Origin: a bacterium
GTDB lineage: Bacteria > Hinthialibacterota > Hinthialibacteria > Hinthialibacterales > Hinthialibacteraceae
Direction of reading: 5' to 3'
Assembly: GCA_963663405.2 (NCBI GenBank)
Contig: CAXXSM010000149.1
Location: forward strand, 32,001 to 96,000
DNA length: 64,000 nt
Every line of letters begins with the position of its first letter. The first letter of the stretch is position 1. The notes beneath the pieces were generated by a model. It was not told the origin of the DNA. It searched no databases and saw nothing but the letters and a program-made list of their open reading frames with translations. Of this stretch, positions 6,555-49,684 are shown piece by piece. The position numbers were made by a program, and so were the translations under genes.

Positions 6555-6620
6555 ATGGTAGGGTTTTTACTACCATAAAATGGATACTTTTCCTACTAGA
6601 CATGTAGTGAATATATCCAT
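6555..6620. promoter_or_regulatory. Two palindromic candidate operators upstream of module 1
   Basis: ATGGTAG-N8-CTACCAT (6555-6576) and ATGGATACTTTTCCTAC-N7-GTAGTGAATATATCCAT (6580-6620, 13/17 inverted match). Confidence 0.45.
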
Positions 6621-6660
6621 ACAGTTTCTACACTGCTCTACGAGCAGAGAATCTATTTCT

Positions 6661-8202
6661 ATGAAAGAGAGAAGAATGATGAAAAGAGTTTTGCTAGTTG
6701 TTCTTGTGGGGGTGTTATTTATCACTTCTGTCTATGCAGATCGGAGCCAGTACGATCCAACGAAAACACAGTTCGCCCTGCCTTTGTTGATTGACAATCC
6801 GGCGTTAGGGCCGATTGTTGTGGATGGCATCATCCATACAAGCAGGAATCAAGATGACAGTGAAGCCTGGGAGTCCGCGTACCGCTGGACTGTGTCGCCT
6901 GATTCCTCGTTGGATGACGGTGTCGCTTATGGGCATATGTCGCTAGGGGATCCACCGGAAAGCAGTGATGATCTGAGTTTTACGATCTACATCGGATATG
7001 ACAGCAAAAACCTCTATGTGGGTGTGTCAGTCAGCGATTTCGATAATTATGATGACGACGCGGCGGAAGGATCGTACAACGAAGGAAACACCTGGGACGA
7101 CGACAGTGTGGAGATTTTTGTTGATGGCGATAACAGTAATTATCCCGAACGGGATACAACGGGAAGCAATCCTGACGTTGTCGATACCGGTGGACAGTAT
7201 GTAATCACATTTAATAATGCAAGCCGTGACGCGGAAGCGGGCAGTCCCGGATTCGGGCCGGACGCGGCCTGGTACGCGAGGACGGAATTTACAGATGTTG
7301 GTTACGATGCGGAATTCCGGATTTCGTTAAGCGAGATCGGGAATCCCCAGCCGGGTGATATCATTGGCTTTACCGTCGCAGTCAACGATGATGACGACGG
7401 CGGCGCCAGTGAGCGGCAGATGATTTGGGCGGGTGAAACCCACGTCGAAGCAAGTTATGGGAATCTCGTGTTTGGTGGACGTACGATTGTCGCGCCGAAA
7501 GTCTCGACAGCGCCGACGATTGATGGCGTGATAGATCTAAGTGAATATCCCGGCGCGGTTGAACAGATTGTCAATCAGTATACCGGCAATACTTCTACTG
7601 AAGACGACGCATGGGAAGCCGGTGATTTAGAAATGTCGGCATGGGTCGTACACGATGAGGATTATATCTACGTGGCGGTCGATGTGCTGGACGACGCGAT
7701 TGTAAACGATACGGTTTCCACGCCTGGATCAATGGGGGGAAACACCTGGGATGATGATGGAATCGAAATCTATTTTGATTCGGATGAAACAAACCGGCAT
7801 AACTATTTTGGCCCCGCTCATCTGCCCCGGCATGAAGGCAATTACAACACCACCGCGAATAATTCGATCGGCGCCCCTCCGACAGGCCCTGTTTATGGGG
7901 ATGATCCAGACGCTGATTATTATTCCTTAACGACATTGACGGATGACGGTTATCAGTTGGAATTCCGGATCAAGAAACTGGCGTTGACGATTCCCGGCGA
8001 AGATGTGTTGATGGATACGTTTGGATTCAATTTCAGCGCGAACGATGATGACATCGTAGATCCTGACGGGACCACCGGTGACCGGGACGCGCCTGGCGGA
8101 CAATATCACTGGAACGGTACCGCGAATTCCGAACGGAGCTACGGCTTTTTAACATTGTCACCTGAGGAATTCACCGCCGTTCAGGAATGGGCTCTTTATT
8201 AA
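6661..8202 (+). CDS. Secreted protein with tandem CBM9/DOMON-like sugar-binding domains and C-terminal TAVQEWALY tail
   Basis: Signal peptide MMKRVLLVVLVGVLFITSVYA (start 6661, 6676 or 6679). Two repeats of P-x-[VI]DG...[YH]D...YV.V.V.D...NTWDDD.[VI]EI..D...EFRI...GF....NDDD. Confidence 0.8.
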   Translation: MKERRMMKRVLLVVLVGVLFITSVYADRSQYDPTKTQFALPLLIDNPALGPIVVDGIIHTSRNQDDSEAWESAYRWTVSPDSSLDDGVAYGHMSLGDPPESSDDLSFTIYIGYDSKNLYVGVSVSDFDNYDDDAAEGSYNEGNTWDDDSVEIFVDGDNSNYPERDTTGSNPDVVDTGGQYVITFNNASRDAEAGSPGFGPDAAWYARTEFTDVGYDAEFRISLSEIGNPQPGDIIGFTVAVNDDDDGGASERQMIWAGETHVEASYGNLVFGGRTIVAPKVSTAPTIDGVIDLSEYPGAVEQIVNQYTGNTSTEDDAWEAGDLEMSAWVVHDEDYIYVAVDVLDDAIVNDTVSTPGSMGGNTWDDDGIEIYFDSDETNRHNYFGPAHLPRHEGNYNTTANNSIGAPPTGPVYGDDPDADYYSLTTLTDDGYQLEFRIKKLALTIPGEDVLMDTFGFNFSANDDDIVDPDGTTGDRDAPGGQYHWNGTANSERSYGFLTLSPEEFTAVQEWALY

Positions 8203-8324
8203 TGACCGCATGATTGGATAGCCAAACACGGATCACTCTTGTATTAACATCTCGCGTTTTATGTGTGTAATAAACAAGGGATCCGAGGAGACCGTGATGG
8301 ATCTCCATCATGAGAAAACAAAAT

Positions 8325-8364
8325 GAGGTTCGGGCGATGTCCCTCAGAGGCGCGCCCGAACCTC
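8325..8364. repeat. Intergenic GC-rich hairpin (REP-like or RNA-stabilising)
   Basis: Perfect 12-bp stem GAGGTTCGGGCG / CGCCCGAACCTC between the tailed protein gene and the pilin gene. Confidence 0.55.
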
Positions 8365-8492
8365 CCTCCCCTAACAACCATCAGACTGTTAAACGTGTAC
8401 AACGTAAGGTGAATGAGGACAGTAAGAAAACGCGTATGTTTCAATGGGCGATTCGAAACAACGAAAGGCATGGACGGAACAGAATGGTTTAT

Positions 8493-9143
8493 ATGCGATC
8501 AGCGAAAAAGGGATTTACGTTAATTGAATTATTGATAGTGGTGGCGATTATTGGTATATTAGCCGCGATCGCGGTGCCGAATTTTCTAAATGCGCAGATT
8601 CGCGCGAAGATGGCGCGCTGTTTCGCCGATATGCGTTCGGTTGGAAATGGTATCGAACAGCTGCGGCTAGATAAGGGTGTACTGTTAATCGACTGGTGGG
8701 ATGACGATGCGCAATGGGGGCAGGAACGGTTGACGAATATCTTTAATCTTGTCGGCGCCGGGCCGGATTTTGAAGCCCGTGGAAAAGACGCTGTCATGGC
8801 TCCGTTGACCAGTCCGGTGGCGTATTTGTCTTCCATCCCAACCGATCCATTCCAGACCGGGCCGGAATTCAATTATCCTTATTACTATTATTTAGACAAC
8901 GATCCGGAAGGATCGGGTGAAGATCACGATTTCCCGGTTTACCGTATACAATCCGCCAAGCAGTATGGCACTTCACCTCTTCGCGAAGGGGAATGGGCCT
9001 TGGGTGGAATCGGGCCGGATAAAGCGTGGTACGAGACGGTGGGTGGAGATAATGTAAGTGATTTGCGGGGCGTTCATTACGATCCCTCCAATGGGCTGGT
9101 CAGCCGGGGTGATATCATGCTGACATCGCGAGGGATCAATTGA
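8493..9143 (+). CDS. Prepilin-type N-terminal cleavage/methylation protein (GspG-like paralogue)
   Basis: Class III signal MRSAKKG|FTLIELLIVVAIIGILAAIAVPNF, plus P.DPF and GPD motifs. The ORF-track start at 8310 is over-extended. Confidence 0.9.
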   Translation: MRSAKKGFTLIELLIVVAIIGILAAIAVPNFLNAQIRAKMARCFADMRSVGNGIEQLRLDKGVLLIDWWDDDAQWGQERLTNIFNLVGAGPDFEARGKDAVMAPLTSPVAYLSSIPTDPFQTGPEFNYPYYYYLDNDPEGSGEDHDFPVYRIQSAKQYGTSPLREGEWALGGIGPDKAWYETVGGDNVSDLRGVHYDPSNGLVSRGDIMLTSRGIN

Positions 9144-29665: not shown

Positions 29666-31129
29666 ATGAAAAATAAGTTTTTTTTCATCTTTGCAGTAGC
29701 TTCTGTAATTTCTTTATCACTGATGGTCAATGCGGGGTACGCCCAAGTTTTCTTTGAGGATGACTTCAACGATGGCGGAACTGCGGGCGCTGTAGAAAGA
29801 GGTTGGGAATTTATTGAAAATGAATTCGTGACCGAAGTGGGCAGTTTTTTCGTCATTGCGCCGGAATGGCCCGTAAGAGAACCTAGCTCCGACACAGGTA
29901 TCCTCAATCCTCCTACAGCGGATGGCACGGCATCTGACGGTGGTTTTTTGATTGCCGACTCCGATGCGGGAGACGGTTCCGATGACATTGGTTCCCAGTC
30001 TGATATTTACGCTATTTCTCCTGTTTTCAGCACTGAAGGCGCCAGCGAAGTCTGGTTCCACGCCGACACGGAAATTGAAATCAATAATAATGGGGAATGT
30101 GTGATGGAATTCATGGTCACCGCAGACGGTGGAGAAACTTGGATTCCCGTCTTTCAAGGAATTGAACCAGAACGAGTCATTGACTCATTCAACGGTGGCG
30201 GTGTCGGCCGGGACCGGACGGATGGATGGCCGGTATTAGGCAGCGCGTCTCACACAAAATCCTTTGGAGGAATTCATGGGCGTTGGCATTTACAATTGCC
30301 TGATGAAGTTGTGAACAAACCTGAAGTTCGATTTCGGATAGGATATTATGAACCGGCGGACGCTTGGTGGATCACAATGGATAACGTTGTTGTCGACGCT
30401 TCACCTCCCCCCATGGGATCGGAAGTGATTCTGACTGAAGATTTCGAAAATGGCATTCCCGAAACTTGGTCCAACACGACGGCGAAAGAAACTCCAACTG
30501 GTGAGGATCAGCTCTGGGACACAAAGCCGATCTGGGACGAAGATTTCGATGAACCTTACAAGTTCAGTGAAAGTATGGGATTAGCTGTTAATATCGACAT
30601 TGTCCGCCAAGCGGAATCTTTTGATCTTGTTCTCGATCTTGACAATCCCGATGAATATTTTAATCCAAAAGGCGTCTTGGATGGCCGTTGGGTTCTTATG
30701 TTGGCCGGTCAAGGCTATGCGATGTGGCAGGAAGGCGATTTAGACCAGCTGAATGGTGTCAGTGAAGGAGCGAATTTAGATACGCCGGTTCTGGATTGCA
30801 GCAATTACACAGGAGTTTATCTCGCTTTTGATTCAGAATTGCTCGTAGGAAACAGCTCGGCGCGATATGAAGTGTATGTCAGCGCTGATGGCGGCGCCTC
30901 CTTTGATCGATTATTCACTTACACCGAAGCCTTAATGAACTATGAAGAAGCCCCTTACTTCGACCGTCACTATCTCGAAGCGCCCCAGGCGGCCGGTCAG
31001 AGTGAAGTTATTTTCCGTTTTCAAGCCATCGGGGAAGATCCTGGTGAAATGGAAGGATTTTGGGTTATTGATAACGTCAGCATAACCGCTGATTCCGGCA
31101 CACCCGTTACCGATTGGGTCTTATATTAA
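29666..31129 (+). CDS. Secreted acidic protein, two MAM/cleaved-adhesin-like jelly-roll domains, C-terminal TPVTDWVLY tail
   Basis: AAGGAG RBS; signal peptide ending AGYA; two repeats of E.F...[ST]PV...V[TS]ADGG..[WF]...EV.FR...W..DNV. Confidence 0.8.
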   Translation: MKNKFFFIFAVASVISLSLMVNAGYAQVFFEDDFNDGGTAGAVERGWEFIENEFVTEVGSFFVIAPEWPVREPSSDTGILNPPTADGTASDGGFLIADSDAGDGSDDIGSQSDIYAISPVFSTEGASEVWFHADTEIEINNNGECVMEFMVTADGGETWIPVFQGIEPERVIDSFNGGGVGRDRTDGWPVLGSASHTKSFGGIHGRWHLQLPDEVVNKPEVRFRIGYYEPADAWWITMDNVVVDASPPPMGSEVILTEDFENGIPETWSNTTAKETPTGEDQLWDTKPIWDEDFDEPYKFSESMGLAVNIDIVRQAESFDLVLDLDNPDEYFNPKGVLDGRWVLMLAGQGYAMWQEGDLDQLNGVSEGANLDTPVLDCSNYTGVYLAFDSELLVGNSSARYEVYVSADGGASFDRLFTYTEALMNYEEAPYFDRHYLEAPQAAGQSEVIFRFQAIGEDPGEMEGFWVIDNVSITADSGTPVTDWVLY

Positions 31130-31166
31130 TTAGATCGTTGCGGTGTGAAAAGTTTTGAGTGTTTAG

Positions 31167-31201
31167 AAAGGGATGCGCCGTTGATCTGGCGCATCCCTTT
31201 T
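31167..31201 (+). terminator. Intrinsic terminator between tailed protein and pilin genes
   Basis: 13-bp perfect stem AAAGGGATGCGCC / GGCGCATCCCTTT ending in a T run. Confidence 0.75.
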
Positions 31202-31330
31202 GACGAGAATCAAGCGGTTCCTCTTTTATTAAGATTATTGTGGACATTTCTATTAACATTTTTGTTTAGTATATTTAGAAAATTAAATAGATTGCCGTTT
31301 AATCCTTTTTATTCATACAGGAGACCGAGA

Positions 31331-31966
31331 ATGAAAAACAAAGTAGTTAAAAGGGGATTTACTCTCATTGAACTTCTCATCGTGGTCGCCATTATCGGAA
31401 TTTTGGCGGCGATCGCCGTGCCCAATTTTTTGAACGCCCAGATCCGGGCGAAGATCTCCCGGTGTGTGGCGGATATCCGGATGCTGAATCAGCAAGTCAC
31501 GATTTTTCATATGGATAAAAACCGGTGGCTGATCGACGGCAACGATTGTGATGGCTCATCAGAATGTTGTTTCGAAGGTGAATATATCGGGAAACATCCA
31601 AATACATCGAATGTTTCTGTCCTGCAGGGCGCCAATCATTTTGATGGGCGTATTTATCAACCTTTAACTACTCCCATCGCGTACATCAGCAGTATTCCCA
31701 TTGATCCATTCAGCGATGGTTTGTTCTATTCCTATGAAGATTGGGATTGCTCGAATAATGGAGGTTTCTTCGGGCTTTTAGCGGCGACCGGTCCGGATGC
31801 GGATAATGGCGATTGGCATCCCGATCAGCGGTCCATTGTATACTATGGGACAAACGGTCTTGCAAGCAACGGCGACATCTGGTACATCTGGCTGTTCAAA
31901 CCTGGTTATACCAATACCCAATATGAAACCTACTTTAAAAAATCCGGTTGGAGCGCTCAATATTAA
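31331..31966 (+). CDS. Prepilin-type N-terminal cleavage/methylation protein (GspG-like paralogue)
   Basis: AGGAG RBS; MKNKVVKRG|FTLIELLIVVAIIGILAAIAVPNFLNAQIRAK; LTTPIAYISSIPIDPF; TGPD; TNGLASNGDI. Confidence 0.92.
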   Translation: MKNKVVKRGFTLIELLIVVAIIGILAAIAVPNFLNAQIRAKISRCVADIRMLNQQVTIFHMDKNRWLIDGNDCDGSSECCFEGEYIGKHPNTSNVSVLQGANHFDGRIYQPLTTPIAYISSIPIDPFSDGLFYSYEDWDCSNNGGFFGLLAATGPDADNGDWHPDQRSIVYYGTNGLASNGDIWYIWLFKPGYTNTQYETYFKKSGWSAQY

Positions 31967-40876: not shown

Positions 40877-42367
40877 TTATTGTACAGAAATGGGGAATTC
40901 ACGAATCGACTCGTTGAGTGTCCATCGTATACGATAGTCTCCAACAGGTACTGCGCTCGAATCCCATTCAAAAATTAAGATTCCACTATCATCTTCGGTG
41001 ATACTATCGGATTTTTGTTTGCGAATATCCAAAACTTTTTTCTGCCCGTCTCGAGAGTACAAGGCAATATCCACATTCCCTTTAACACGTGATTGGCTAA
41101 TCAAAAATGATTTTTTATCTTGCATAATATTGCTCGGAATTGCCGCCACCATAGATAAATAGCAATTGCTGTTAAAAGGGCGTTGCAATTCAGTGACCGG
41201 TAGCTGTTCATAATGACGATTGAATGTAATCGGAGTTTGATCATTTATATTAGCGAGTTCACGAATCGTAACGTCAAAATCAGCTAAGCCTCTCCATATT
41301 GTTCCAGCCAGTTTGGGAAATTCGCCTCCAGGCGCTTTCGTAATAGGGATTTTTCCTAACGACGCCATTTGGACAGCGTAATTGGAATTACGCCATTTAG
41401 GATTCTCTCGATCTCCATTCCACATGACCTTGAGATTTGTATTAATGATTCGTTGGATATCTTCCTTTGTAAATGTAAGTCCGGAATGATAGGCTTCGAC
41501 GATTTCATAAATCTCTCCCGCTTGATAATTGCGGTAGGGATGAACATTCACCCAATGGCGAAGCGTATTTGGAGAGGAAAAATCGATGTCCCAAACGCCA
41601 AATGGTTCCCAATAATTCCATACATAATGATCCTGATACAAACACATGCGGCTCTTCATAAAATTAAAAATCTTTAAAGCTCGTTCACGATATTTATCGA
41701 TTTTCGTGATTCGATAAATCCGCAGACAAGCGATGGCCATTGAATTTTGCTTATTGAATGGAAGCGTAAGATTTGATTTTATTGCAGGAAGAACTCGCCA
41801 TGCGCTAAGGTTATCTTTCGTCAAATAGTGATCCCACGAACGATATGCGCCGTATGGACCATCTTCATACCATGTTCCTCGCTGATCCCATTTTTCGATC
41901 AAGTGCTTTTGGGCAAATTTCAAATATGCTTTCGCTTTGGATGAGTAGGATTGCTGGATTGCAGGATCCTCATGGTTTAGAACCGTTTCACAAAATTCCA
42001 ACATGGGATTAATCAAGATTGCGTCGCCTATATGCGCGTCACAGATATAATTTTCATCATAAATATAAGGACCGACCCATCCTTTATATCCATCCGGCGC
42101 TTGACGCGTCTTTGCGAGCAGGGCGTCATAGTAACGAATCGCGGAGTCAAGAAAAGAGCGATCTAGAGTCGAGTTATACTCATCCATGAAAGCGTTCATG
42201 TTATAGGCCGCATGCCAACATAATCCCTCGCCGGTCAACGATCCATCAACCTTCAGTAAGGGAGTTCTCATCCGGCTCTGGAGTAATTCATCCGCATTTC
42301 TATTCGACCAACAAATCGATGAAAAACACAAGATGATGAGAAATGACAAGAGTAAAATTTGTTTCAC
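40877..42367 (-). CDS. Secreted hypothetical protein (probable alpha/alpha toroid)
   Basis: 496-aa ORF with a signal peptide and an aromatic-rich helical pattern. Family not recognised. Confidence 0.65.
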   Translation of the reverse strand: MKQILLLSFLIILCFSSICWSNRNADELLQSRMRTPLLKVDGSLTGEGLCWHAAYNMNAFMDEYNSTLDRSFLDSAIRYYDALLAKTRQAPDGYKGWVGPYIYDENYICDAHIGDAILINPMLEFCETVLNHEDPAIQQSYSSKAKAYLKFAQKHLIEKWDQRGTWYEDGPYGAYRSWDHYLTKDNLSAWRVLPAIKSNLTLPFNKQNSMAIACLRIYRITKIDKYRERALKIFNFMKSRMCLYQDHYVWNYWEPFGVWDIDFSSPNTLRHWVNVHPYRNYQAGEIYEIVEAYHSGLTFTKEDIQRIINTNLKVMWNGDRENPKWRNSNYAVQMASLGKIPITKAPGGEFPKLAGTIWRGLADFDVTIRELANINDQTPITFNRHYEQLPVTELQRPFNSNCYLSMVAAIPSNIMQDKKSFLISQSRVKGNVDIALYSRDGQKKVLDIRKQKSDSITEDDSGILIFEWDSSAVPVGDYRIRWTLNESIREFPISVQ

Positions 42368-42698
42368 GATTTTTCCTTTCGATTAGAGTCAATCGCTTGA
42401 TTGTAGATAAGAATCCAAATAGTGATCTTGGTTATTGATTGTTTAAATATCCATTGAAGCGATTCCCGTATTTGTTGAAATCCTTCTTTATTTTACTAAT
42501 CGACTATGGTGTTATGAAGTGTACACGTATTTATCCTCTCTGGTTACTTACTTGTTTTAGCCTTTTTCAATCGTTTTCTCAATATTTCATACGATCATAT
42601 GCCTAAGTGTTTATACGAATCACATCCTTGACAATTTTTCTGAAGACACGCATTATGATAATACGAAATAGAAATACGTAACACTTCCAGGATCGAAA

Positions 42699-43409
42699 AT
42701 GTTATGCCTCCAAAAAGGATTCACTCTAATAGAACTTCTTGTCGTTGTGGCCATCATCGGGATTTTAGCCGGAATTGTTGGCGCTAATATGATCGACGCA
42801 TTGCGCCGCGCCGATGACGCCGCCTGTAAAGAGAATCTTCATTCCCTCTTCACCGCTATGCAGGCGTACCGTCTGGATTACGGCCGTTTTCCGCTTGTGG
42901 ATGGTGTGGCGGATACGGTATCCCGTCCTGAAACAACGGCGTGGGGATGCGGCCCGGCGGCGAACGGTTATTGGACCGGCGTCCCCATGTCCTTAGTCGA
43001 ATTAGGGTATTGTTCTGAGTCCTGCCTTTATTGTCCCGCTCTTAAGCGGCAGAACAGCCATACTATCGAAGCGTATTCAAATTGTGGGAATTCTTCCTTT
43101 TCGGGCAAGGAAGTCCCACAGTGGCGTTATTTGCGTTACGCGTACGATCGGGCTGCGATTGATTCCGGCGGGCCAGACAGCGAAAGCGAGGCGATTGGTC
43201 TCTTCAACATCGATCGAAACACCAATGACGTCTGGCTGGCGCGATGTATGCATGTCAATGTAGGGAAATACTACCGGGATCGCGACATCCGCTTTCCTCA
43301 TCGTATCGAAATTGACGAAGAAAGGCCCGATCTCGCCCATTTCGGCGAATACGAAGTCACCATCAACGGCAATATCCGCGAACATGCGGTTCAATTAAAA
43401 AGGAGATAA
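42699..43409 (+). CDS. Prepilin-type N-terminal cleavage/methylation protein (divergent, Cys-rich)
   Basis: MLCLQKG|FTLIELLVVVAIIGILAGI...ACKENLHSL..AMQAYRLDYG.FP, with LYCPA. Confidence 0.9.
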   Translation: MLCLQKGFTLIELLVVVAIIGILAGIVGANMIDALRRADDAACKENLHSLFTAMQAYRLDYGRFPLVDGVADTVSRPETTAWGCGPAANGYWTGVPMSLVELGYCSESCLYCPALKRQNSHTIEAYSNCGNSSFSGKEVPQWRYLRYAYDRAAIDSGGPDSESEAIGLFNIDRNTNDVWLARCMHVNVGKYYRDRDIRFPHRIEIDEERPDLAHFGEYEVTINGNIREHAVQLKRR

Positions 43410-43414
43410 GAAGA

Positions 43415-44737
43415 ATGAGACGATTTTGTGTTGGACTGTTTTCCGTTTTGATATTGATTTGTGCGATGCTCCAAAGCGCTTGGCCGCAACTGGCCGTTCC
43501 AGAATTTGGAGACGCCGTACAGATCACGGATACAGATCTTGCCTCCCTATTAGCGCGAAGTCCTGAAGGTTCTTTCATGTTCGACAGTCATGGAAGGTTG
43601 CATCTGGTTTACACGGAGAAAAATGCGGAGGGCACCAGTTTAGGGAATCCGGGTTTAATGCTGTATTGTAATTTTTTGGATGGGGAATGGTCCGAACCGT
43701 TAGCCATCCGTTCGGATGCAGGAGAAGGAATTCCATTCTGCAATGGAGGAGAACCAGCGCTTTGGGTTCAGGACGATCAAACCGTTCATTTTGTTTTTCA
43801 TGATTACCGGTACAGCACTAGCAGCAGCGGGACGAATCAAGTTGAAGTCTATTACCGTAAGTTACTTCCCTCAGGTGAATTCGAGTCCGATGAAATGCGA
43901 ATCACCGATAATGAGAAGAATTCATGGCGGCCCAAAATCGCGCTCAATCAAGACAACCAAATCGCTCTTGTATGGTATGATTATTCTCAAAGTTCCCTAG
44001 GCGATTTGATGCTTGCTTTGTCCGATTCGAATCAGCAATTTCCAACAGCCACGGATTATGCCAGCCAAGTCGTCGCGAACGCCAATCCAAATGGTGAGGG
44101 AGTTCAAATGACGAATGCTGTGTTTGATCATGAAGGTCGCCTTCATGTAGTGTGGACCGCGGCGGAACTGGATGGTTTTACGTATGTGAATGAACGCTTG
44201 ATATACGGCGTTTTAAACGATCCAGCGAGCCGAACTTTAGACCAAAGGATCGAAGTCAGTTCTCGCGGAACCCTTTCCACTGATCCGGCAAAGATTCAGG
44301 TCGACGATGATACCGTATGGATTGTATGGACAGATATGAAAACACAAATACCCAATATTTTTCTGGCTTCGAAAAAAATTGATCAATCAGAATTCAGCGA
44401 TCCTATACAGATCTCAAACAATGACCTTCCTGATGAGGTTGGTTTTGCTGATTTAGCCATCTCTCCGGATGGAATAATCTATACGGTCTGGACCGATTTC
44501 AGAACCGGTGAAGGTGATATCTATCTTCGAATGTATGATCCCGTTTCCATGATCCTTTCAGAGATCACTCAGATCACGACCGATGATTTCAATGTAGATG
44601 AAAAACCTGGAATCGCCATCAGTCCTAATGGACAGATCGCGATTCTTTGGGAGAGCAATGTGGAGGGGAGAACCAATTTGATGATGCTCCTAATGGAGTC
44701 CGATACTTCCGTCGGGGATTGGATGCGGTTCGATTAG
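43415..44737 (+). CDS. Secreted acidic protein, probable 7-bladed beta-propeller, C-terminal TSVGDWMRFD tail
   Basis: Signal peptide; seven blade-like repeats (LHLVY, VHFVF, IALVW, LHVVW, VWIVW, IYTVW, IAILW); starts 5 bp after the pilin stop. Confidence 0.75.
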   Translation: MRRFCVGLFSVLILICAMLQSAWPQLAVPEFGDAVQITDTDLASLLARSPEGSFMFDSHGRLHLVYTEKNAEGTSLGNPGLMLYCNFLDGEWSEPLAIRSDAGEGIPFCNGGEPALWVQDDQTVHFVFHDYRYSTSSSGTNQVEVYYRKLLPSGEFESDEMRITDNEKNSWRPKIALNQDNQIALVWYDYSQSSLGDLMLALSDSNQQFPTATDYASQVVANANPNGEGVQMTNAVFDHEGRLHVVWTAAELDGFTYVNERLIYGVLNDPASRTLDQRIEVSSRGTLSTDPAKIQVDDDTVWIVWTDMKTQIPNIFLASKKIDQSEFSDPIQISNNDLPDEVGFADLAISPDGIIYTVWTDFRTGEGDIYLRMYDPVSMILSEITQITTDDFNVDEKPGIAISPNGQIAILWESNVEGRTNLMMLLMESDTSVGDWMRFD

Positions 44738-44762
44738 TGTGATATAGTACTGAAACTATGGA

Positions 44763-44791
44763 GGGCGGGTTATCTAAAACCCGCCCATTTT
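44763..44791 (+). terminator. Hairpin or weak terminator after the tailed protein gene
   Basis: GGGCGGGTT-N6-AACCCGCCC-ATTTT. Confidence 0.55.
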
Positions 44792-44798
44792 ATGAAAA

Positions 44799-45347
44799 AT
44801 GATTGAACAATTACAACAAACGGTTTATATCCTCACCAATTCATTATTATGGCCCGTAGTGATTGCGTTGCTGTTCGGTATGGCGCACACTTTGTATTTG
44901 CTGGGCAATCTGTGCGCCGAAGCCTTTCAGCGGCGCGGAAAAGCGGTCGCCGTTGTGAATCCTGATGAGCCGGCGGATCAAATGAAACGGCGCCAGGGAT
45001 TTCTCGAATGGAAAAAACTTTCGACCCTTGATCCGTCCGCGAATCGCTGGCTTTTGCTGGATCGAACGGAAGCGGAACTCAGCCGCCGGGTCGATACCGC
45101 GAGAATCTGGGTGCGTCTCGGTCCCGCTTTGGGATTGGCTGGTACCCTGATCCCGCTGGGAAGCGCGTTGACCGCATTAGCGGCCAATGATTTGCAAATA
45201 CTCTCGCAACGGTTGATTCTAGCGTTTGGAACCACCGTGTTGGGATTGGTCGCAGGAAGTATCGCGTGGATTGTCTCTACGACGCTGGAACGTTGGTACC
45301 GCCTCGATCTGGCGGAAATTCGTCACAGTTTGGAGTCCGAAGAATGA
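44799..45347 (+). CDS. MotA/TolQ/ExbB proton-channel family protein (HmuU-like)
   Basis: RLGPALGLAGTLIPLG.AL..L......LS..LILAF.TTV.GL...RWY..DL. Confidence 0.88.
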   Translation: MIEQLQQTVYILTNSLLWPVVIALLFGMAHTLYLLGNLCAEAFQRRGKAVAVVNPDEPADQMKRRQGFLEWKKLSTLDPSANRWLLLDRTEAELSRRVDTARIWVRLGPALGLAGTLIPLGSALTALAANDLQILSQRLILAFGTTVLGLVAGSIAWIVSTTLERWYRLDLAEIRHSLESEE

Positions 45348-45701
45348 AATCGAAGCCTACGCATTCCGGTCTTGGTTTGTTGAGCGGCAACTCGCCGCGA
45401 TGACGATCCACTTTCCGGTTTGGCCAATCTATTTGACATCGGCATCGTGTTCGCGTTGGGATTCATGGTTTCGTTGATCAGCGCCTTGAATCTGCTCGAA
45501 ATGTTTAATCCTGACTCGAAAGTTACGATTACCACTGAACGGGAAGATGGATTGGAGATCACTGTGCGTGAAGGAAAAAAAACAACCGTGCGCCGATTGA
45601 CGAAGCAAGTCGGCAGCGGTGACGGTATCCGTTTGGGGACGGCGTACCGCTTGGAAGACGGTACGGTTGTGTATGTGCCTGATGGCGAAGAGATCCAATG
45701 A
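45344..45701 (+). CDS. DUF2149 protein (HmuV-like), apparent frameshift near 45385
   Basis: DDDPLSGLANLFD...GDGIRLGTAYRLEDGTVVYVP. The DDDP motif lies upstream of the TTG start, and the coupled ATG at 45344 is in another frame. Confidence 0.85.
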
Positions 45702-48700
45702 AACGGTCTATTATCGGCTTCTTTTTTGTTTCTCTCTTCTTTCTTGTATTCCTCATACTCCTGTTTCAAGATAAAGAGATTCCTGGAGAGCGGATTCGAC
45801 TCTTGTTTCTGGTTTCTGATCCGGGAGCGGAACTCATCACGAAAGCCGTCGATTTGCTCTACCAAGAGTATCCACAATTCGCAAACAGCATCGATGTGCG
45901 TGTTCGCGCTCCCTCTACTACAGCGTTGGATCAACCTCTTCTTCCACACGACATGTTGATCGCCGAGGTGAAAGCCTCTCCCTGGATTATGGATCATGAA
46001 AGCGCTTTATCCGCATATCGTCCTTCTGACTCCTTATCCTCATTTCCCTATAAACGAATCGCTTTGGGACGTCTGGGCCCAGGATTAAGTGAAGAAATGC
46101 TGCCTTCATATGGAATGCGGCGAGATGACCTTTTGGATCGGTATTGGGATAATGGAGCGCCAAGCCAGGTAAAAGAAATGATCACTTATATTATGCGGTC
46201 CTACTTTGGTTATTCTCAACTTCAGGTGGATTCTCCGTCAGACATCATTAAACAGGGATTAATTGTCTTACAGGATCGAGGATATCGAATAGTGCAAAGT
46301 TGGAAGGAGTGGGAAGAAAGATCGAAGCCCAAGAATGATATCCCCAAAGTCGCTGTGTTGGAATACGCCACCCGTGTCCGGCGCGAGACCATTCAGATCC
46401 CACTTTCTATTGCAGCGGAAATTAGAAAACAAGGTATGCAGCCGGCGCTGGTGTTCGCCACAGAAGGCAGTCAAGCTGTTCGAGATTATTTGATTGATGA
46501 AAATGGGAATCCCCGAGTCGACGCTGTCATCTCCATGCATTTTAAATTCACAGACGAGAAGGCGGTCGAAGCGTTAAGCGCTCTCAATGTACCGGTCATC
46601 AACGCTATTCAAGTTTATGGACGAACGGTGGAAGAATGGCGGAATTCAACGCAGGGACTCAGTACGTCAGAAGTCGCATGGCAACTGGCTGTTCCGGAAT
46701 TGGCTGGGCTTTCTCCTCCAAACGTGGTTGGCGGAGTCGATAACAGTCGCAGCAGCATCTCCTACCAGGCGATTCCCGAACGTGTGACGCGAGCGGTTGG
46801 CCGCGCCCGGCAATGGATTGAACTGCAGCGCGCTCCTCCAGAAAAACGCCGAATCGCCATACTGTATTGGAACTATCCACCCGGAAAACAAAATGTCGGC
46901 GCCAGCTACTTGAATGTTGTCCGCAGCATCCCCGTCATGCTTCGTCATCTGCGTGAAGAAGGTTACGATACAGGAATTGTAGATTTAGACGATCCTCGCG
47001 AGATTGAACGGATGATTCTTCAGCGAGGCCGCAATATTGGGAATTGGGCTCCCGGTGAGCTCGATCGCTTGATTGATTCACAAAAAATCGATCTTGTCTC
47101 TGTCACTCAATACAAAAAATGGTTTACTGAACTCCCGCGTGATTTTCAGAAAACAATCATAGACTATTGGGGACCGCCAGAAGACGCTGAAATCATGGCG
47201 AAGACCATCGATGAGGAACAATATTTTATTCTTTCAACCATCCACGTAGGAAATATCGTCTTAATGCCACAACCTGACCGGGCGCGAACGCAAAACCTTG
47301 AGATGCTCTATCAATCGCAGGAACTGCCTCCTCACCATCAATATCTGGCGGCTTATTTATGGCTGCAACATGAATTTAAAGCCCAGGCTGTCGTTCACAC
47401 CGGAACGCATGGCACTCATGAATGGATGTCGGGGAAAGAATCCGGTTTATCCGGAAGCGATCCGGGGGAAGTTCTCGCAGGGACTTTGCCTATTTTGTAT
47501 CCATACATTGTGGATGATGTGGGGGAGGGGATTGTCGCTAAGCGGAGGGGGATGTCCACTGTCATCGACCATCTGACTCCAGCGTTAGGGGAAGGCGGAT
47601 TGTCTCCTGAATTACAAAAATTACTGACTTTGATTCAGGAATGGAGAAGCGCGCAAGGGAAGGATCCTGAATCCGCAAATCAATTCGCCGATGAAATCGA
47701 TCTTGATGTGAAGAAAAGAGGAATACACTTGGACTTGAAAGATCGGGGATGGTCTGAAGATGAAATGTCGAATGTGTCTTCATTTCCAAACCGGGCGTCA
47801 ACATTAGAAGATTATATCAACCAGATTCGAATTCAATCTATTCCTTATGGGTTGCATACATTTGGCGTCTCTCCCGATGGGGAAAAACTGGACAAGTTTA
47901 CTGACCTTATTGTGAAAGGGAACGGAGATGAATATCGAGAAACATATAGAAATAATTTAATTCAATGCGGAACGCAGGAGTTGGTAAGTTTGACAAAAGG
48001 TTTGAACGGCCAATATGTCCGTCCGGGACCGGGAAACGATCCCGTCCGGGATACTTTATCAATCCCGACAGGAAAAAACTTTTATACTTTCGATCCACGA
48101 ATCATTCCCACAGAACAATCGGACGAACTCGGAAAAAAAACTGGCGGAGGAGCTCGTCTCAAACCATCACGCGCAGCATGGAAAATACCCTGAAAAAATC
48201 GCCTTGCAGCTTTGGGGAGTGGAAACCATTCGGCACATGGGTGTGCAGGAAGCGCAAGGATTGGCTTTGATCGGCGTTGAGGTAGAGCGGGATGACCGAG
48301 GCCGGATCAAGGATTTGCATTTGATTCCACGAGAACAGTTAGGCCGCCCCCGCGTCGATGTCGTGTTTCATGCGACGAGTTTGTATAGGGATACATTCCC
48401 CGTGCTTTTCGAACTGATCGATAAAGCCGTCAACTTGGCCGCGTCGGCGCCGGAAGAAGATAATCCTATCCGAAACCACGCTCAAACTTTGGATGAACAA
48501 TTGATTGCGCAAGGCGTTCCTCCAGAACAGGCGCGAATCCGCAGTTTGGTTCGCATCTTTGCGGAACCGACCGGAAAGCACGACAGTAAAATTCACGCGA
48601 TGACCGCTTCCAGCGGAAGTTGGGATCAAGAAGAACAGGTCGGTAATAATTATATTCGACGCATGGGGCATGGTTATGGCGGTGGCGTCTGGGGGCAGCC

Positions 48701-49684
48701 CATGGAGCGTGAGTTTCGCAGCGCCTTGAGTGGAACGGAAGCGATCGTTCATACGCGCGCTTCGAAAATCTATTCGACCTTGGATAACGATGATTATTTT
48801 TCCTATGGTGGAAGTATCGCGTTGGGAGTGAGGACCGTCGACGGTGGTTCCAGCCCTCCATTTTTCGTTACGGATCTGCGAACGCCGGGCCAGGAAAAAC
48901 ACGAAACTCTCGAACGGTTTCTCGGTCAGGAATTCCGTTCGCGCTACCTCAATCCTGAATTCGCCAAAGCGATGATGGAGGAAGGATACGCCGGCGGCCG
49001 TCATGTGTGGAAAGCGGCGGAATATTTATGGGGGTGGCAAGTCGTCTATCCCGAAACTGTTGATGGCGCCAAATGGACAGAATTGTATGAAGTGTGGATG
49101 AAAGATCGCTACGATTTAAAGATGGGTAAATTCTTCGAAGAACACAATCCATACGCCAAACAAGGAATATCCGCCCGCATGTTGGAAACGATCCGAAAGG
49201 CTATTGGGACGCGCCGCAGGAGATCATTGATGATTTAACGAAAATCTATATTGAACAAGTCGCCAAACACGATGTGGCGTGCGATCATCTAACCTGCGAC
49301 AATCCTGATCTTCAAGATTTCATCCGCGAAAAAGCGGAAAAAATACCCTCTCTCGATCCCGCCACTATCGCCGCTTGGATTAAGAATGTGGAAACGGCGA
49401 CTGGAAAAACAATGGATGAAGCGTTGAAAAAACGAATCGCAGACCGGCAAAAGTGGCACAAGCCTCAAGAGATTCAAGAAATGGATCAACCAAAAGAAAA
49501 TGAAGCCAATGCTAACACACCCCAACCAGTGGAAGGATATGTTATGGAAGAAGAGGAATGCACAGCGTCTAAGGACAGCCCATCTCAGAACGATTCGTTT
49601 CGCTTGCTGGATGCTCTTGTTTGTTTCTGTTTGGTCTCTAGTTGGATTGCTGGCGCTTGCAAGTCTTACATACAAATGAAATAA
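45698..49684 (+). CDS. cobN: CobN/Mg-chelatase-H-family protein, membrane-anchored (HmuS/BtuS-like), split by two frameshifts
   Basis: NYPPGK.NVGASYLNV, PPHHQY.A.Y.W, H.GTHGTHEW..GKE, YPYIVDDVGEG, PTGKNFY, LGRPRVDV, LDNDD, RYLNP, RK/GYW and C..LTCDNP. Frame breaks at A8 48133-48140 and A3 49196-49198. Hydrophobic N- and C-terminal helices. Confidence 0.9.

Follow-up and report, generated by a model that had tools for sequence, protein, structure and literature searches.

Diderm bacteria take up cobalamin and haem across the outer membrane by TonB-dependent transport. Whether another device can stand in for the TonB-dependent receptor (TBDR) is the question raised by a five-gene cassette in the 64,000-nucleotide (nt) stretch of DNA analysed here (the window), which is part of contig C149 of G000, an 8.4-Mb metagenome-assembled genome (MAG) that is 82% complete and belongs to the candidate phylum Hinthialibacterota. 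The cassette lies on the plus strand at 42699-49684, in window coordinates, and encodes in order a pilin-like protein, a beta-propeller, an ExbB-like protein, a DUF2149 protein and a CobN-like protein (Table 1). An earlier sequence-only reading had taken it for an hmu-like operon in which a pilin and a tailed seven-bladed propeller replace the receptor and the hemophore. Its gene list, with the CobN-like protein as membrane-anchored, was confirmed by Pfam and open reading frame (ORF) checks. The genes are as tightly packed as it had described, with 5 nt between pilin and propeller, 61 nt between propeller and ExbB, and ATGA overlaps at the ExbB/DUF2149 and DUF2149/CobN junctions, and no TBDR or Plug match was found on contig C149, as it had also claimed. 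We report here that the pilin and propeller belong to the cassette throughout its occurrence in the phylum, that both have paralogs behind cobalamin riboswitches, and that, on balance, they are probably an envelope module for the capture of tetrapyrroles.

The pilin and propeller are conserved parts of the cassette

We examined 35 species genomes, which make up the whole GTDB phylum of G000; some members are filed publicly as Candidatus Omnitrophota or "uncultured bacterium". DUF2149 is encoded in eight of them, the window's genome included: in 5 of the 19 other genomes of the same family, in 2 of 6 in the same order, and in none of the 9 from the rest of the class. In all eight, genes for pilin, propeller, ExbB, DUF2149 and CobN follow one another in this fixed order, and the flanking genes vary. 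Compared with its counterpart in the window, the pilin is 75-91% identical, the propeller 55-79%, ExbB 81-92%, DUF2149 91-95% and CobN 71-88%. The ExbB/DUF2149/CobN cassette includes the pilin-like protein and the propeller as conserved members of its operon; orthologous loci devoid of the pair, which the sequence-only reading had named as speaking against its proposal, were not among the eight.

The pair has paralogs in the cobalamin-riboswitch regulon

Relatives of the pilin and propeller outside the cassette provided the most telling clue to function. With a threshold of E<=1e-20, the pilin family gave 45 matches in 34 of the 35 phylum genomes, only eight of them cassette copies. The cobalamin riboswitch RF00174 gave 77 matches, also in 34 of 35 genomes. 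A riboswitch lies upstream on the same strand for 34 of the 37 non-cassette pilins, within 200 nt for 25 and at 1.3-3.4 kb, with other genes intervening, for 9. The three remaining pilins comprise two that abut a contig end and one in G017, the only genome without a riboswitch match. The propeller family gave 51 matches in 33 of 35 genomes, again with eight in cassettes; 31 of the 43 others lie within 2.5 kb downstream of a riboswitch, and most of the other 12 are at contig starts. A pilin-motif scan of the species genomes gave 23 loci, 7 of them cassettes. The pilins of the other 16, and a second copy in L022, are 51-62% identical to that of the window and do not adjoin ExbB, DUF2149 or CobN genes. 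When nine non-cassette loci were tested with Rfam, RF00174 was found directly upstream in all nine, at 86-123 bits.

The genes that follow speak for the same pathway. Locus L025 begins with a riboswitch, a 278-amino-acid (aa) protein carrying the C-terminal tail, a propeller (24% identical), a class I/II aminotransferase (PF00155) and CbiB; a second riboswitch then precedes a pilin, another propeller (39% identical), BtuR/CobO and CobQ, and the run goes on with a BtuF-like Peripla_BP_2 protein, a FecCD permease and an ABC ATPase. In L029 and L030 the order is riboswitch, pilin and FecCD permease. G000 itself has a riboswitch-linked pilin/propeller locus on contig C50, continued by CobT and CobS. 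A third riboswitch of this genome (C53:68705-70263) precedes a 400-aa ORF (L046:8706-9908, minus strand) without a Pfam match at E<=1.

The 278-aa protein is exported, consists of two similar repeats of about 125 aa followed by the tail, and is encoded first after the riboswitch in seven loci. It had no Pfam match at E<=1. Weak leads were SCO2322 (NCBIfam E 1e-6, below the cut-off; Atlas score 0.88) and DUF4430 (Atlas rank 10, score 0.82), the latter a transcobalamin-like family.

A midpoint-rooted tree of 24 pilins, which omitted L040 and L041 as partial rows and L012-L018 as duplicate loci, placed the seven cassette copies in a single group with 100/100 support. This group is nested among the riboswitch-linked pilins, next to those that precede btuR-cobQ-btuFCD. 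The pair found directly before btuR-cobQ-btuFCD is also the most similar to the cassette pair, with 60-62% identity for the pilin and 39-43% for the propeller. The simplest history suggested by these sequences is one joining event between a copied B12-regulon pair and the ExbB/DUF2149/CobN core. The riboswitch and btuFCD-like setting of the paralogs is stronger evidence for a tetrapyrrole than any that the sequence-only reading had. No cobalamin riboswitch lies within 5 kb upstream of any of the eight cassette pilins, and the window gave zero Rfam matches. Because none of the eight cassettes has the riboswitch, the cassette would respond to some other signal, and a ligand other than a corrinoid is conceivable for it.

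TonB-dependent receptors are absent from the neighbourhood of riboswitches

TBDRs are few. In the whole of G000, at its 82% completeness, two matches exceeded the Pfam cut-off and one was weak, all on contigs other than C149, and a search with TonB_C gave zero matches. One of the two receptors adjoins a DUF3450 gene and a second ExbB gene, and the other a YfiR-like gene and a histidine kinase. Across the phylum, 66 TBDR matches were spread over 23 of the 35 genomes, and the other 12 gave none. No TBDR was found within 44 kb of any of the 77 riboswitches; the nearest, at 44.6 kb, lies on the side opposite the riboswitch's downstream genes.

The ExbB/DUF2149/CobN core has other front ends in other lineages

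The sequence-only reading had proposed a survey of CobN, ExbB and DUF2149 loci for their receptor or pilin neighbours. In metagenome data we examined the best 80 of 496 confirmed loci; genes were called with a crude ORF finder and grouped by BLAST, and every cluster took its name from a single representative scanned against Pfam. CobN together with ExbB and/or DUF2149 in one same-strand run was found in 52, which serve as the denominator, the other 28 being excluded; the counts are lower bounds, since many contigs are cut. A TBDR lies in the same-strand run of the core in 26 of the 52. A true DUF1559 prepilin-type protein directly upstream of ExbB-DUF2149-CobN was found once (L058:1495-5104), as was a Kelch-repeat propeller (L056:5-6249), both with no TBDR in view. 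A TBDR is thus the usual front end, and the pilin and propeller therefore stand in its place. Of the positional substitution that had been claimed, the position is borne out, the pair sitting where 26 of 52 other loci have their receptor; the role in uptake across the outer envelope is itself a prediction. A pilin-type front end is not unique to the phylum of G000.

Accessory genes associated with the core were DUF2162 (13 of 52 loci), a BtuF-CbiZ fusion (11), CbiK (6) and HupE/UreJ (6). The Peripla_BP_2-CbiZ fusion is encoded between DUF2149 and CobN, for example in L067, L085, L088, L102, L108, L109, L114, L116, L119 and L133. From their sequence assignments, BtuF-CbiZ and CbiK link the core to corrinoid salvage outside the hmu context. 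In two loci (L055:2681-16977 and L057:186-14122) a TBDR, a NicO-like permease, ExbB, DUF2149 and CobN are encoded between hypA-hypB-hypF and hypC-hypD-hypE; HypF was confirmed by Pfam, and the other hyp genes were read from sequence starts only. The DUF2149 proteins of these loci are 73-76% identical to that of the window, and the two are the closest cores outside the phylum. In the organisms that carry them, this setting suggests that the core helps to supply nickel. Altogether, the accessory genes speak for cobalt, nickel and corrinoids at least as much as for haem.

DUF2149 proteins of 65-80% identity were also met in records named Runella, Flavitalea and Schlesneria (Schlesneria paludicola, 73%). 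In a control genome, that of Methanosarcina acetivorans, an archaeon without an outer membrane, both DUF2149 and CobN were matched.

The CobN-like enzyme is related to, and distinct from, HmuS

A profile built from ten enzyme sequences found its best solved relative in the haem dechelatase HmuS (9d26, E 1.7e-177), followed by CobN (7c6o, 6.3e-148) and ChlH (about 1e-134). According to PMC12583661, HmuS is a membrane-bound enzyme that turns haem into protoporphyrin IX and Fe(II); the defining marks of its family are a Met-rich insertion (domain IV, 22-120 residues; 780-898 in B. theta) and, at a haem site between head and neck, Met-79 plus His-254, which is part of a His-Gly-Arg motif. In the enzyme family there is no space for this insertion: HmuS 693-907 is unaligned where profile positions 734 and 735 are contiguous, and a Met-rich stretch was not seen at the corresponding place of the window protein. 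HmuS His-254 is aligned with an invariant Phe, an invariant His standing one residue earlier (S-x-H-F-K-F); the enzyme is unaligned around Met-79; and His-1209 is aligned with an Asp inside a CobN-like DNDDYF motif. Common to both, the enzyme family and HmuS have terminal transmembrane segments, with a periplasmic orientation predicted, and the HTGTHG motif that is invariant in the ten enzyme sequences is aligned to FGTHG of HmuS (His-538). No NCBIfam equivalog model for CobN or BchH reached its cut-off. Because the Met-rich insertion is lacking, the head/neck ligands were not recovered in the alignment and no NCBIfam CobN or BchH model matched above its cut-off, the enzyme is, by sequence criteria, a separate clade of the CobN/ChlH superfamily and not a bona fide HmuS. 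It may nevertheless work like HmuS, and the superfamily datasets EV3 and EV4 of PMC12583661 may already delineate its clade. The term "hmu-like operon" thus holds for the MotA/ExbB-type and DUF2149-type genes beside a CobN-like gene; it does not extend to HmuY, HmuR or the Met-rich insertion, and the head/neck ligands were not recovered.

An alignment of 26 DUF2149 sequences shows one transmembrane helix with an invariant A-N-x-F, after which comes Asp or Glu, and a C-terminal domain that is small and conserved. A single transmembrane helix followed by a small C-terminal domain is the layout of ExbD and TolR. The trio of ExbB, DUF2149 and CobN occurs without a TonB- or TolA-like third protein, often without a TBDR, and in an archaeon; on these three grounds we infer that ExbB and DUF2149 act on the enzyme itself, replacing the AAA+ motor that class I chelatases of the cytoplasm use.

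Predicted structures of the pilin-like protein and the propeller

The pilin-like protein has a GspG-like N-terminus in which the prepilin motif G-F-T-L-I-E is followed by a long hydrophobic helix, and it matched TIGR02532 above the cut-off. Its globular part is family-specific, with eight cysteines and the motifs CGPAANGYW and WRFLRYAYN. The predicted model (pLDDT 64.8) consists of an N-terminal helix (residues 10-61) and a C-terminal sheet and is of low confidence in the conserved Cys-rich part. Foldseek with this low-confidence model returned nothing at E<=0.001, only weak pilin matches by way of the helix. DUF1559 (PF07596) weakly matched 12 of 20 family members (best E 1.3e-5) and did not match the window pilin at E<=0.01; hhalign of the two families aligned residues 3-67 only.

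The AlphaFold model of the propeller (pLDDT 85, pTM 0.85) is a seven-bladed beta-propeller, and the sequence shows a "..VW.D" strand seven times. The best structural matches are without exception seven-bladed: the C-terminal domain of CylK (Z 35), the Photorhabdus lectins PLL/PHL (Z 30) and GH145 (Z 29). A match to BNR_4 was below the cut-off. Residues 430-440 are disordered in the model, and W436 among them is invariant in 19 homologs. BtuG, with which the sequence-only reading had compared this protein, is a seven-bladed surface binder of B12. The comparison stands for the class of seven-bladed propellers; no fold-specific likeness appeared, no BtuG chain was among the matches listed (Foldseek and VIA-align, 50 rows), and a profile scan gave no sequence-family match, a result compatible with a relationship to BtuG.

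A complex prediction of the pilin (28-236) with the propeller (25-440), each with its alignment, scored 0.02 against a mark of 0.32, which speaks neither for nor against binding. Both proteins are rare, with 22 to 25 matches each in a collection of 5.8 billion proteins.

The C-terminal tail is a genome-wide feature of exported proteins

The propeller ends in a tail with the consensus T-[SPA]-V-x-[DN]-W-x-L-[YFH] at the very C-terminus, which it has in common with its paralogs and with the 278-aa family. In the crude set of 6626 ORFs of G000, 167 end in the tail by a loose and 125 by a strict definition, compared with 25 in a control shifted 10 residues inward. A signal-peptide-like N-terminus was present in 114 of the 167. 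Tail-bearing ORFs adjoin an ORF with the pilin motif in 25 of 167 cases, as against 265 of 6626 for all ORFs, an enrichment of about 3.7-fold; the other 142 are not adjacent to a pilin gene. The sequence-only reading had treated the tail as the mark of a pilin partner, and this did not hold up: the tail is best described, from its distribution among ORFs, as a general C-terminal signal of exported proteins, enriched beside pilin genes and not specific to them. It looks like an undescribed sorting or docking signal, and no NCBIfam model recognises it. In the window two further tail/pilin pairs were seen, in which the pilin gene follows that of a CBM9-domain protein and of a choice-of-anchor-J-like protein, respectively (Table 1).

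Pilin machinery is plentiful in this genome. We counted in G000 9 secretin (PF00263) matches, 7 T2SSE-family ATPase matches, two of these ATPase matches in open frames of 365-378 aa, and about 138 ORFs with the prepilin motif, an unusually heavy investment. Because secretin and T2SSE-family genes are present, a retractile "fishing" mechanism stays possible.

The back half of the window's cassette is frameshifted

The CobN-like gene appears as three ORFs (45698-48193, 48015-49238 and 49274-49684) because of two 1-nt indels. Comparison with six orthologs revealed an extra A in the run at 48133-48140 (A8; one A fewer restores the frame) and one base lacking at about 49195. In the DUF2149 gene, whose ATG at 45344 overlaps the ExbB stop codon, the frame relative to four orthologs indicated a 1-nt insertion at about 45388-45399. 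In seven relatives a single ORF of 1326-1329 aa encodes the CobN-like protein, and DUF2149 reads through in all four relatives checked.

A serious possibility, though one we hold at somewhat below even, is that the cassette is decaying in G000, with DUF2149 and the CobN-like gene truly frameshifted and no back half made. Three 1-nt indels fall within 4.3 kb while the three upstream genes are intact, and a contig of a 98%-identical strain from the public run X1, in frame at both CobN indel sites, is also broken, by a different extra A in the run at 48073-48078. On the other hand, this contig has a depth of only 3.4, two of the three indel sites in G000 are A-runs, and the genes are intact in the seven relatives. 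A contig from X2 (at least 99% identical, possibly the source sample) spans none of the indel sites. Other split genes were met by chance in the MAG, which makes assembly indel errors a live alternative: a MotA/ExbB domain extends over two overlapping ORFs beside a TBDR gene (C18:80169-82084; L047:10170-12085). Prepilin-type genes cut after the N-terminal helix were also noticed, at C112:2019-2354 and C60:40931-41308. Between true decay and assembly error, the choice for the back half is near even.

A proposed capture module and the explanations that compete with it

On balance, and on comparative grounds, we favour the view that the pilin and tailed propeller serve the phylum as an envelope module for the capture and delivery of tetrapyrroles, which in the cassette would feed a periplasmic chelatase or dechelatase linked to the proton-motive force. 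We favour it because the cassette pair duplicates a riboswitch-controlled pair in genomes that have no BtuB-like receptor near their riboswitches; in other lineages its place is taken by a TBDR, which may or may not be accompanied by a surface binder. The pair would capture a tetrapyrrole at the cell envelope; its riboswitch-linked copies would hand corrinoids to BtuF and BtuCD, and the cassette copy would pass a corrinoid or haem, as a metallated tetrapyrrole, on to the chelatase-like enzyme. This enzyme, predicted to be fixed to the inner membrane by its two terminal helices and to lie mostly in the periplasm, would remove or exchange the metal of a tetrapyrrole-type chelate. The proton-motive force, relayed by ExbB and the single-pass, ExbD-like DUF2149, would drive or gate it in place of AAA+ ATPases. 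Gene content and order, their conservation, the riboswitch linkage and the lack of TBDRs nearby were observed; the cellular location, the ligand, the direction of the reaction, the coupling of ExbB and DUF2149 to the enzyme and any contact between pilin and tail are suggested by sequence comparison. As the cassette's ligand, a corrinoid or cobalt is a tentative first choice, because the pilin and propeller paralogs lie in the cobalamin regulon; haem or iron appears less likely, and a nickel chelate and some other ligand each less likely again.

Several observations weigh against this proposal. The evidence is entirely comparative, with location and binding predicted. The window's own copy of the cassette has three frameshifts, and no cassette has the cobalamin riboswitch of the paralogs. 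The enzyme leaves no room for the insertion that defines HmuS, and the closest cores outside the phylum, within hyp genes, suggest by their gene context nickel and not a tetrapyrrole. The pilin model is poor precisely in the conserved Cys-rich part, the structural matches of the propeller are generic to seven blades, and most tail-bearing ORFs are found away from pilin genes.

A bolder version, which we regard as doubtful, is that the phylum imports B12-sized tetrapyrroles without TBDRs through a pilin-based machine. A specialised pilin on or at the tip of a retractile type IV-like fibre, or a pseudopilus, would dock secreted binders, the propellers and the 278-aa two-repeat protein, by their T-x-V-x-[DN]-W-x-L-[YFH] tails. 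The loaded binder would be drawn through a secretin into the periplasm, and its cargo passed to BtuFCD or to the dechelatase driven by the proton-motive force. The tail would then be a new general sorting or docking signal for more than 100 proteins per genome, and ExbB and DUF2149 would be the motor of the extracytoplasmic chelatase, in line with the occurrence of the trio in archaea, where there is no outer membrane.

After decay of the window's copy, considered above, the best surviving alternative is that no fibre is involved. The pilin-like protein may simply be an inner-membrane anchor that holds the propeller in the periplasm, so that the pair replaces a periplasmic binder or hemophore shuttle and not the receptor, with passage of the outer membrane through another pore. 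Of pilin features the protein shows only a prepilin motif and a helix at its N-terminus, the signal peptide of the propeller is of the plain Sec kind, and some 138 prepilin-motif ORFs far exceed the needs of any fibre. However, the riboswitch operons already encode a BtuF-like periplasmic binder, so that a second is not obviously needed, general porins exclude B12-sized ligands, and no TBDR lies near any riboswitch. We judge this explanation rather unlikely.

Somewhat less probable still is the acquisition of nickel or cobalt from a chelate other than a tetrapyrrole, with the pilin and propeller binding a metallophore and the enzyme stripping the metal in the periplasm. The cores within hyp genes, with their TBDR and NicO-like permease, fit this idea, as do the HupE/UreJ permeases of six survey loci; a different metal signal is also what the missing B12 riboswitch and the hyp-linked relatives speak for. 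Both proteins of the pair are nonetheless paralogous to cobalamin-regulon proteins, BtuF-CbiZ occurs with the core in 11 of 52 loci and CbiK in 6, and the only characterised member of such a core acts on haem (PMC12583661).

An explanation that we consider improbable to a similar degree is secretion: the pilin would be a pseudopilin of a type II secretion-like machine and the tail an export or surface-anchoring signal, and the propeller, either set free or displayed, would serve outside the cell as a "corrinophore" or hemophore, a binder whose cargo enters otherwise. A tail on 125-167 ORFs, mostly with signal peptides, against 25 in the control is what a sorting signal would produce, its carriers in the window include the CBM9 and choice-of-anchor-J-like proteins, and G000 has nine secretin matches. 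Secretion leaves the TBDR-free crossing of the outer membrane by the ligand unexplained, and it overlaps with the capture module that we favour rather than excluding it. Finally, that the pilin and propeller are chance neighbours, functionally unlinked to an ordinary ExbB/DUF2149/CobN cluster, is contradicted by the conservation of the cassette and is very improbable: pilin-motif genes are indeed common in G000 (138 of 6626 ORFs), but the order is constant in eight of eight genomes with variable flanks, the gaps are 5 and 61 nt, and a promoter is conserved upstream of the pilin gene.

Relation to known systems

The nearest described system is hmuYRSTUV of the Bacteroidota Porphyromonas gingivalis and Bacteroides thetaiotaomicron, in which, according to PMC11681262 and PMC12583661, a CobN-like HmuS with terminal transmembrane segments, a MotA/ExbB-type HmuU and a DUF2149-type HmuV are encoded in one operon. 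In both systems the capture module is encoded first and the enzyme last. The cassette differs in having no HmuY, HmuR (the TBDR) or HmuT; the pilin-like protein and propeller head it instead. BtuB/BtuG with BtuFCD is similar in that a seven-bladed propeller, here that of the paralogs, is encoded with B12-transport genes under a cobalamin riboswitch. In contrast to BtuG, the propeller of this phylum has a pilin and no TBDR for a partner, and it carries a Sec signal and tail in place of a lipoprotein signal.

Type IV pilins and type II pseudopilins have the same prepilin motif and long N-terminal helix, and secretins and PilB/PilT-family ATPases are encoded in G000. In the competence pili of DNA uptake, a retractile fibre brings a bound ligand through a secretin. 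The cassette pilin differs from those of type IV pili and the type II secretion system in its Cys-rich globular domain, which has no confident structural match, and in the location of its gene in nutrient operons instead of a pilus cluster. DUF1559 (SBP_bac_10) proteins, expanded in Planctomycetota, resemble it through the weak matches of 12 of 20 members and the upstream placement in L058, whereas only the first 65 or so residues align and the rest of the cassette pilin is unrelated. CobNST and ChlHID belong to the same catalytic superfamily (PF02514), and the DNDDYF-type motif of the cassette enzyme is nearer to CobN than to HmuS. Unlike them, the cassette enzyme is membrane-anchored and predicted to face the periplasm, with ExbB and DUF2149 genes in place of those for AAA+ partners.

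In the literature on prepilins, pseudopilins and DUF1559 with cobalamin uptake or riboswitches, a pilin/propeller front end was not described, and in that on DUF2149 the titles and opening lines of abstracts made no link to pilins. As far as the literature was searched, the core is known from hmu, and neither the front end nor its tie to the cobalamin regulon appears to have been described. A whole candidate phylum keeps cobalamin riboswitches together with btuFCD-like and salvage genes, and has a pilin and tailed propeller, never a TBDR, behind the riboswitches. If the capture module is real, it would be a new route for the uptake of large nutrients, would for the first time tie a concrete function to one of the pilin-like proteins whose very large families in PVC-type and candidate phyla are unexplained, and would define a new C-terminal signal. 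The survey suggests a modular metal-extraction core whose front end varies by lineage: a TBDR, a DUF1559 pilin, a Kelch propeller, or a pilin and propeller. Its accessory genes, for cobalt, nickel and corrinoids as often as for haem, bear on the role of HmuS/CobN homologs outside hmu operons, a question raised in PMC12583661.

Promoter and gene layout of the cassette

Features of the locus are collected in Table 1. PF02514 matched the two large fragments of the CobN-like gene with E 3.9e-174 (profile 2-611) and 8.2e-109 (profile 725-1081), and the protein has a hydrophobic segment at its N-terminus and another at its C-terminus.

Table 1. Positions of the cassette and of related features (window coordinates unless a locus is named)
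Feature	Position	Strand	Remarks
Sigma-70-like promoter, TTGACA, 17 nt, CATTAT	42628..42656	+	10/12 consensus matches
Operator-like 27-nt block, two GTAAYAC-like half sites about 20 nt apart	42658..42684	+	just past the -10 box; aligned in 8/8 orthologs
Prepilin-type (pseudopilin-like) protein, 236 aa	42699..43409	+	N_methyl PF07963 E 1e-8; TIGR02532
Sec-exported seven-bladed beta-propeller (predicted), 440 aa, tail ...TSVGDWMRFD	43415..44737	+	predicted model, signal peptide
GC-rich hairpin then T-rich tract, between propeller and ExbB-like genes	44763..44786	+	
ExbB/MotA/TolQ-type proton-channel protein (HmuU-like), 182 aa	44799..45347	+	PF01618 E 1e-10
DUF2149 protein (HmuV-like)	45344..45701	+	PF09919 E 7e-24; conserved ANLF(D/E); small domain, predicted periplasmic; 1-nt insertion at ~45388-45399
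CobN/HmuS-superfamily class I chelatase-like protein	45698..49684	+	PF02514; two 1-nt indels
CBM9-domain protein, 540 aa, tail ...TAVQEWALY	6580-8202		followed by pilin at 8310-9143
Choice-of-anchor-J-like protein, 487 aa, tail ...TPVTDWVLY	29666-31129		followed by pilin at 31145-31966
Tail motif	8158-8202		
Tail motif	31085-31129		
Tail motif	44705-44737		
278-aa protein	L025:954-1790		relatives in L026, L027, L034, L035, L038
278-aa protein	L033:7800-8636		

All eight orthologous regions upstream of the pilin gene have CTTGA of the -35 box without change. When the 27-nt block that follows the promoter was turned into a weight matrix, the next-best sites in G000 preceded other pilin/tail operons (C21:119829, C112:1966 and C60:41341), and the block may serve as operator for a regulator that pilin operons share rather than for a metal sensor. 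A reading of it as a Fur box was dropped because its likeness to one is poor. Rfam at E<=1 gave zero matches on 42300-42760, and the block is therefore not a known RNA element.

The hairpin between the propeller and ExbB-like genes folds at the equivalent site in all seven regions examined (the window and six orthologs), and its stem, GGGCGG(G/A)T...CCCGCC, is identical in five of them. This hairpin before ExbB suggests that the pilin and propeller are made in excess over the products of the three downstream genes. In P. gingivalis, the hmuY transcript exceeds that of the whole operon, according to PMC11681262.

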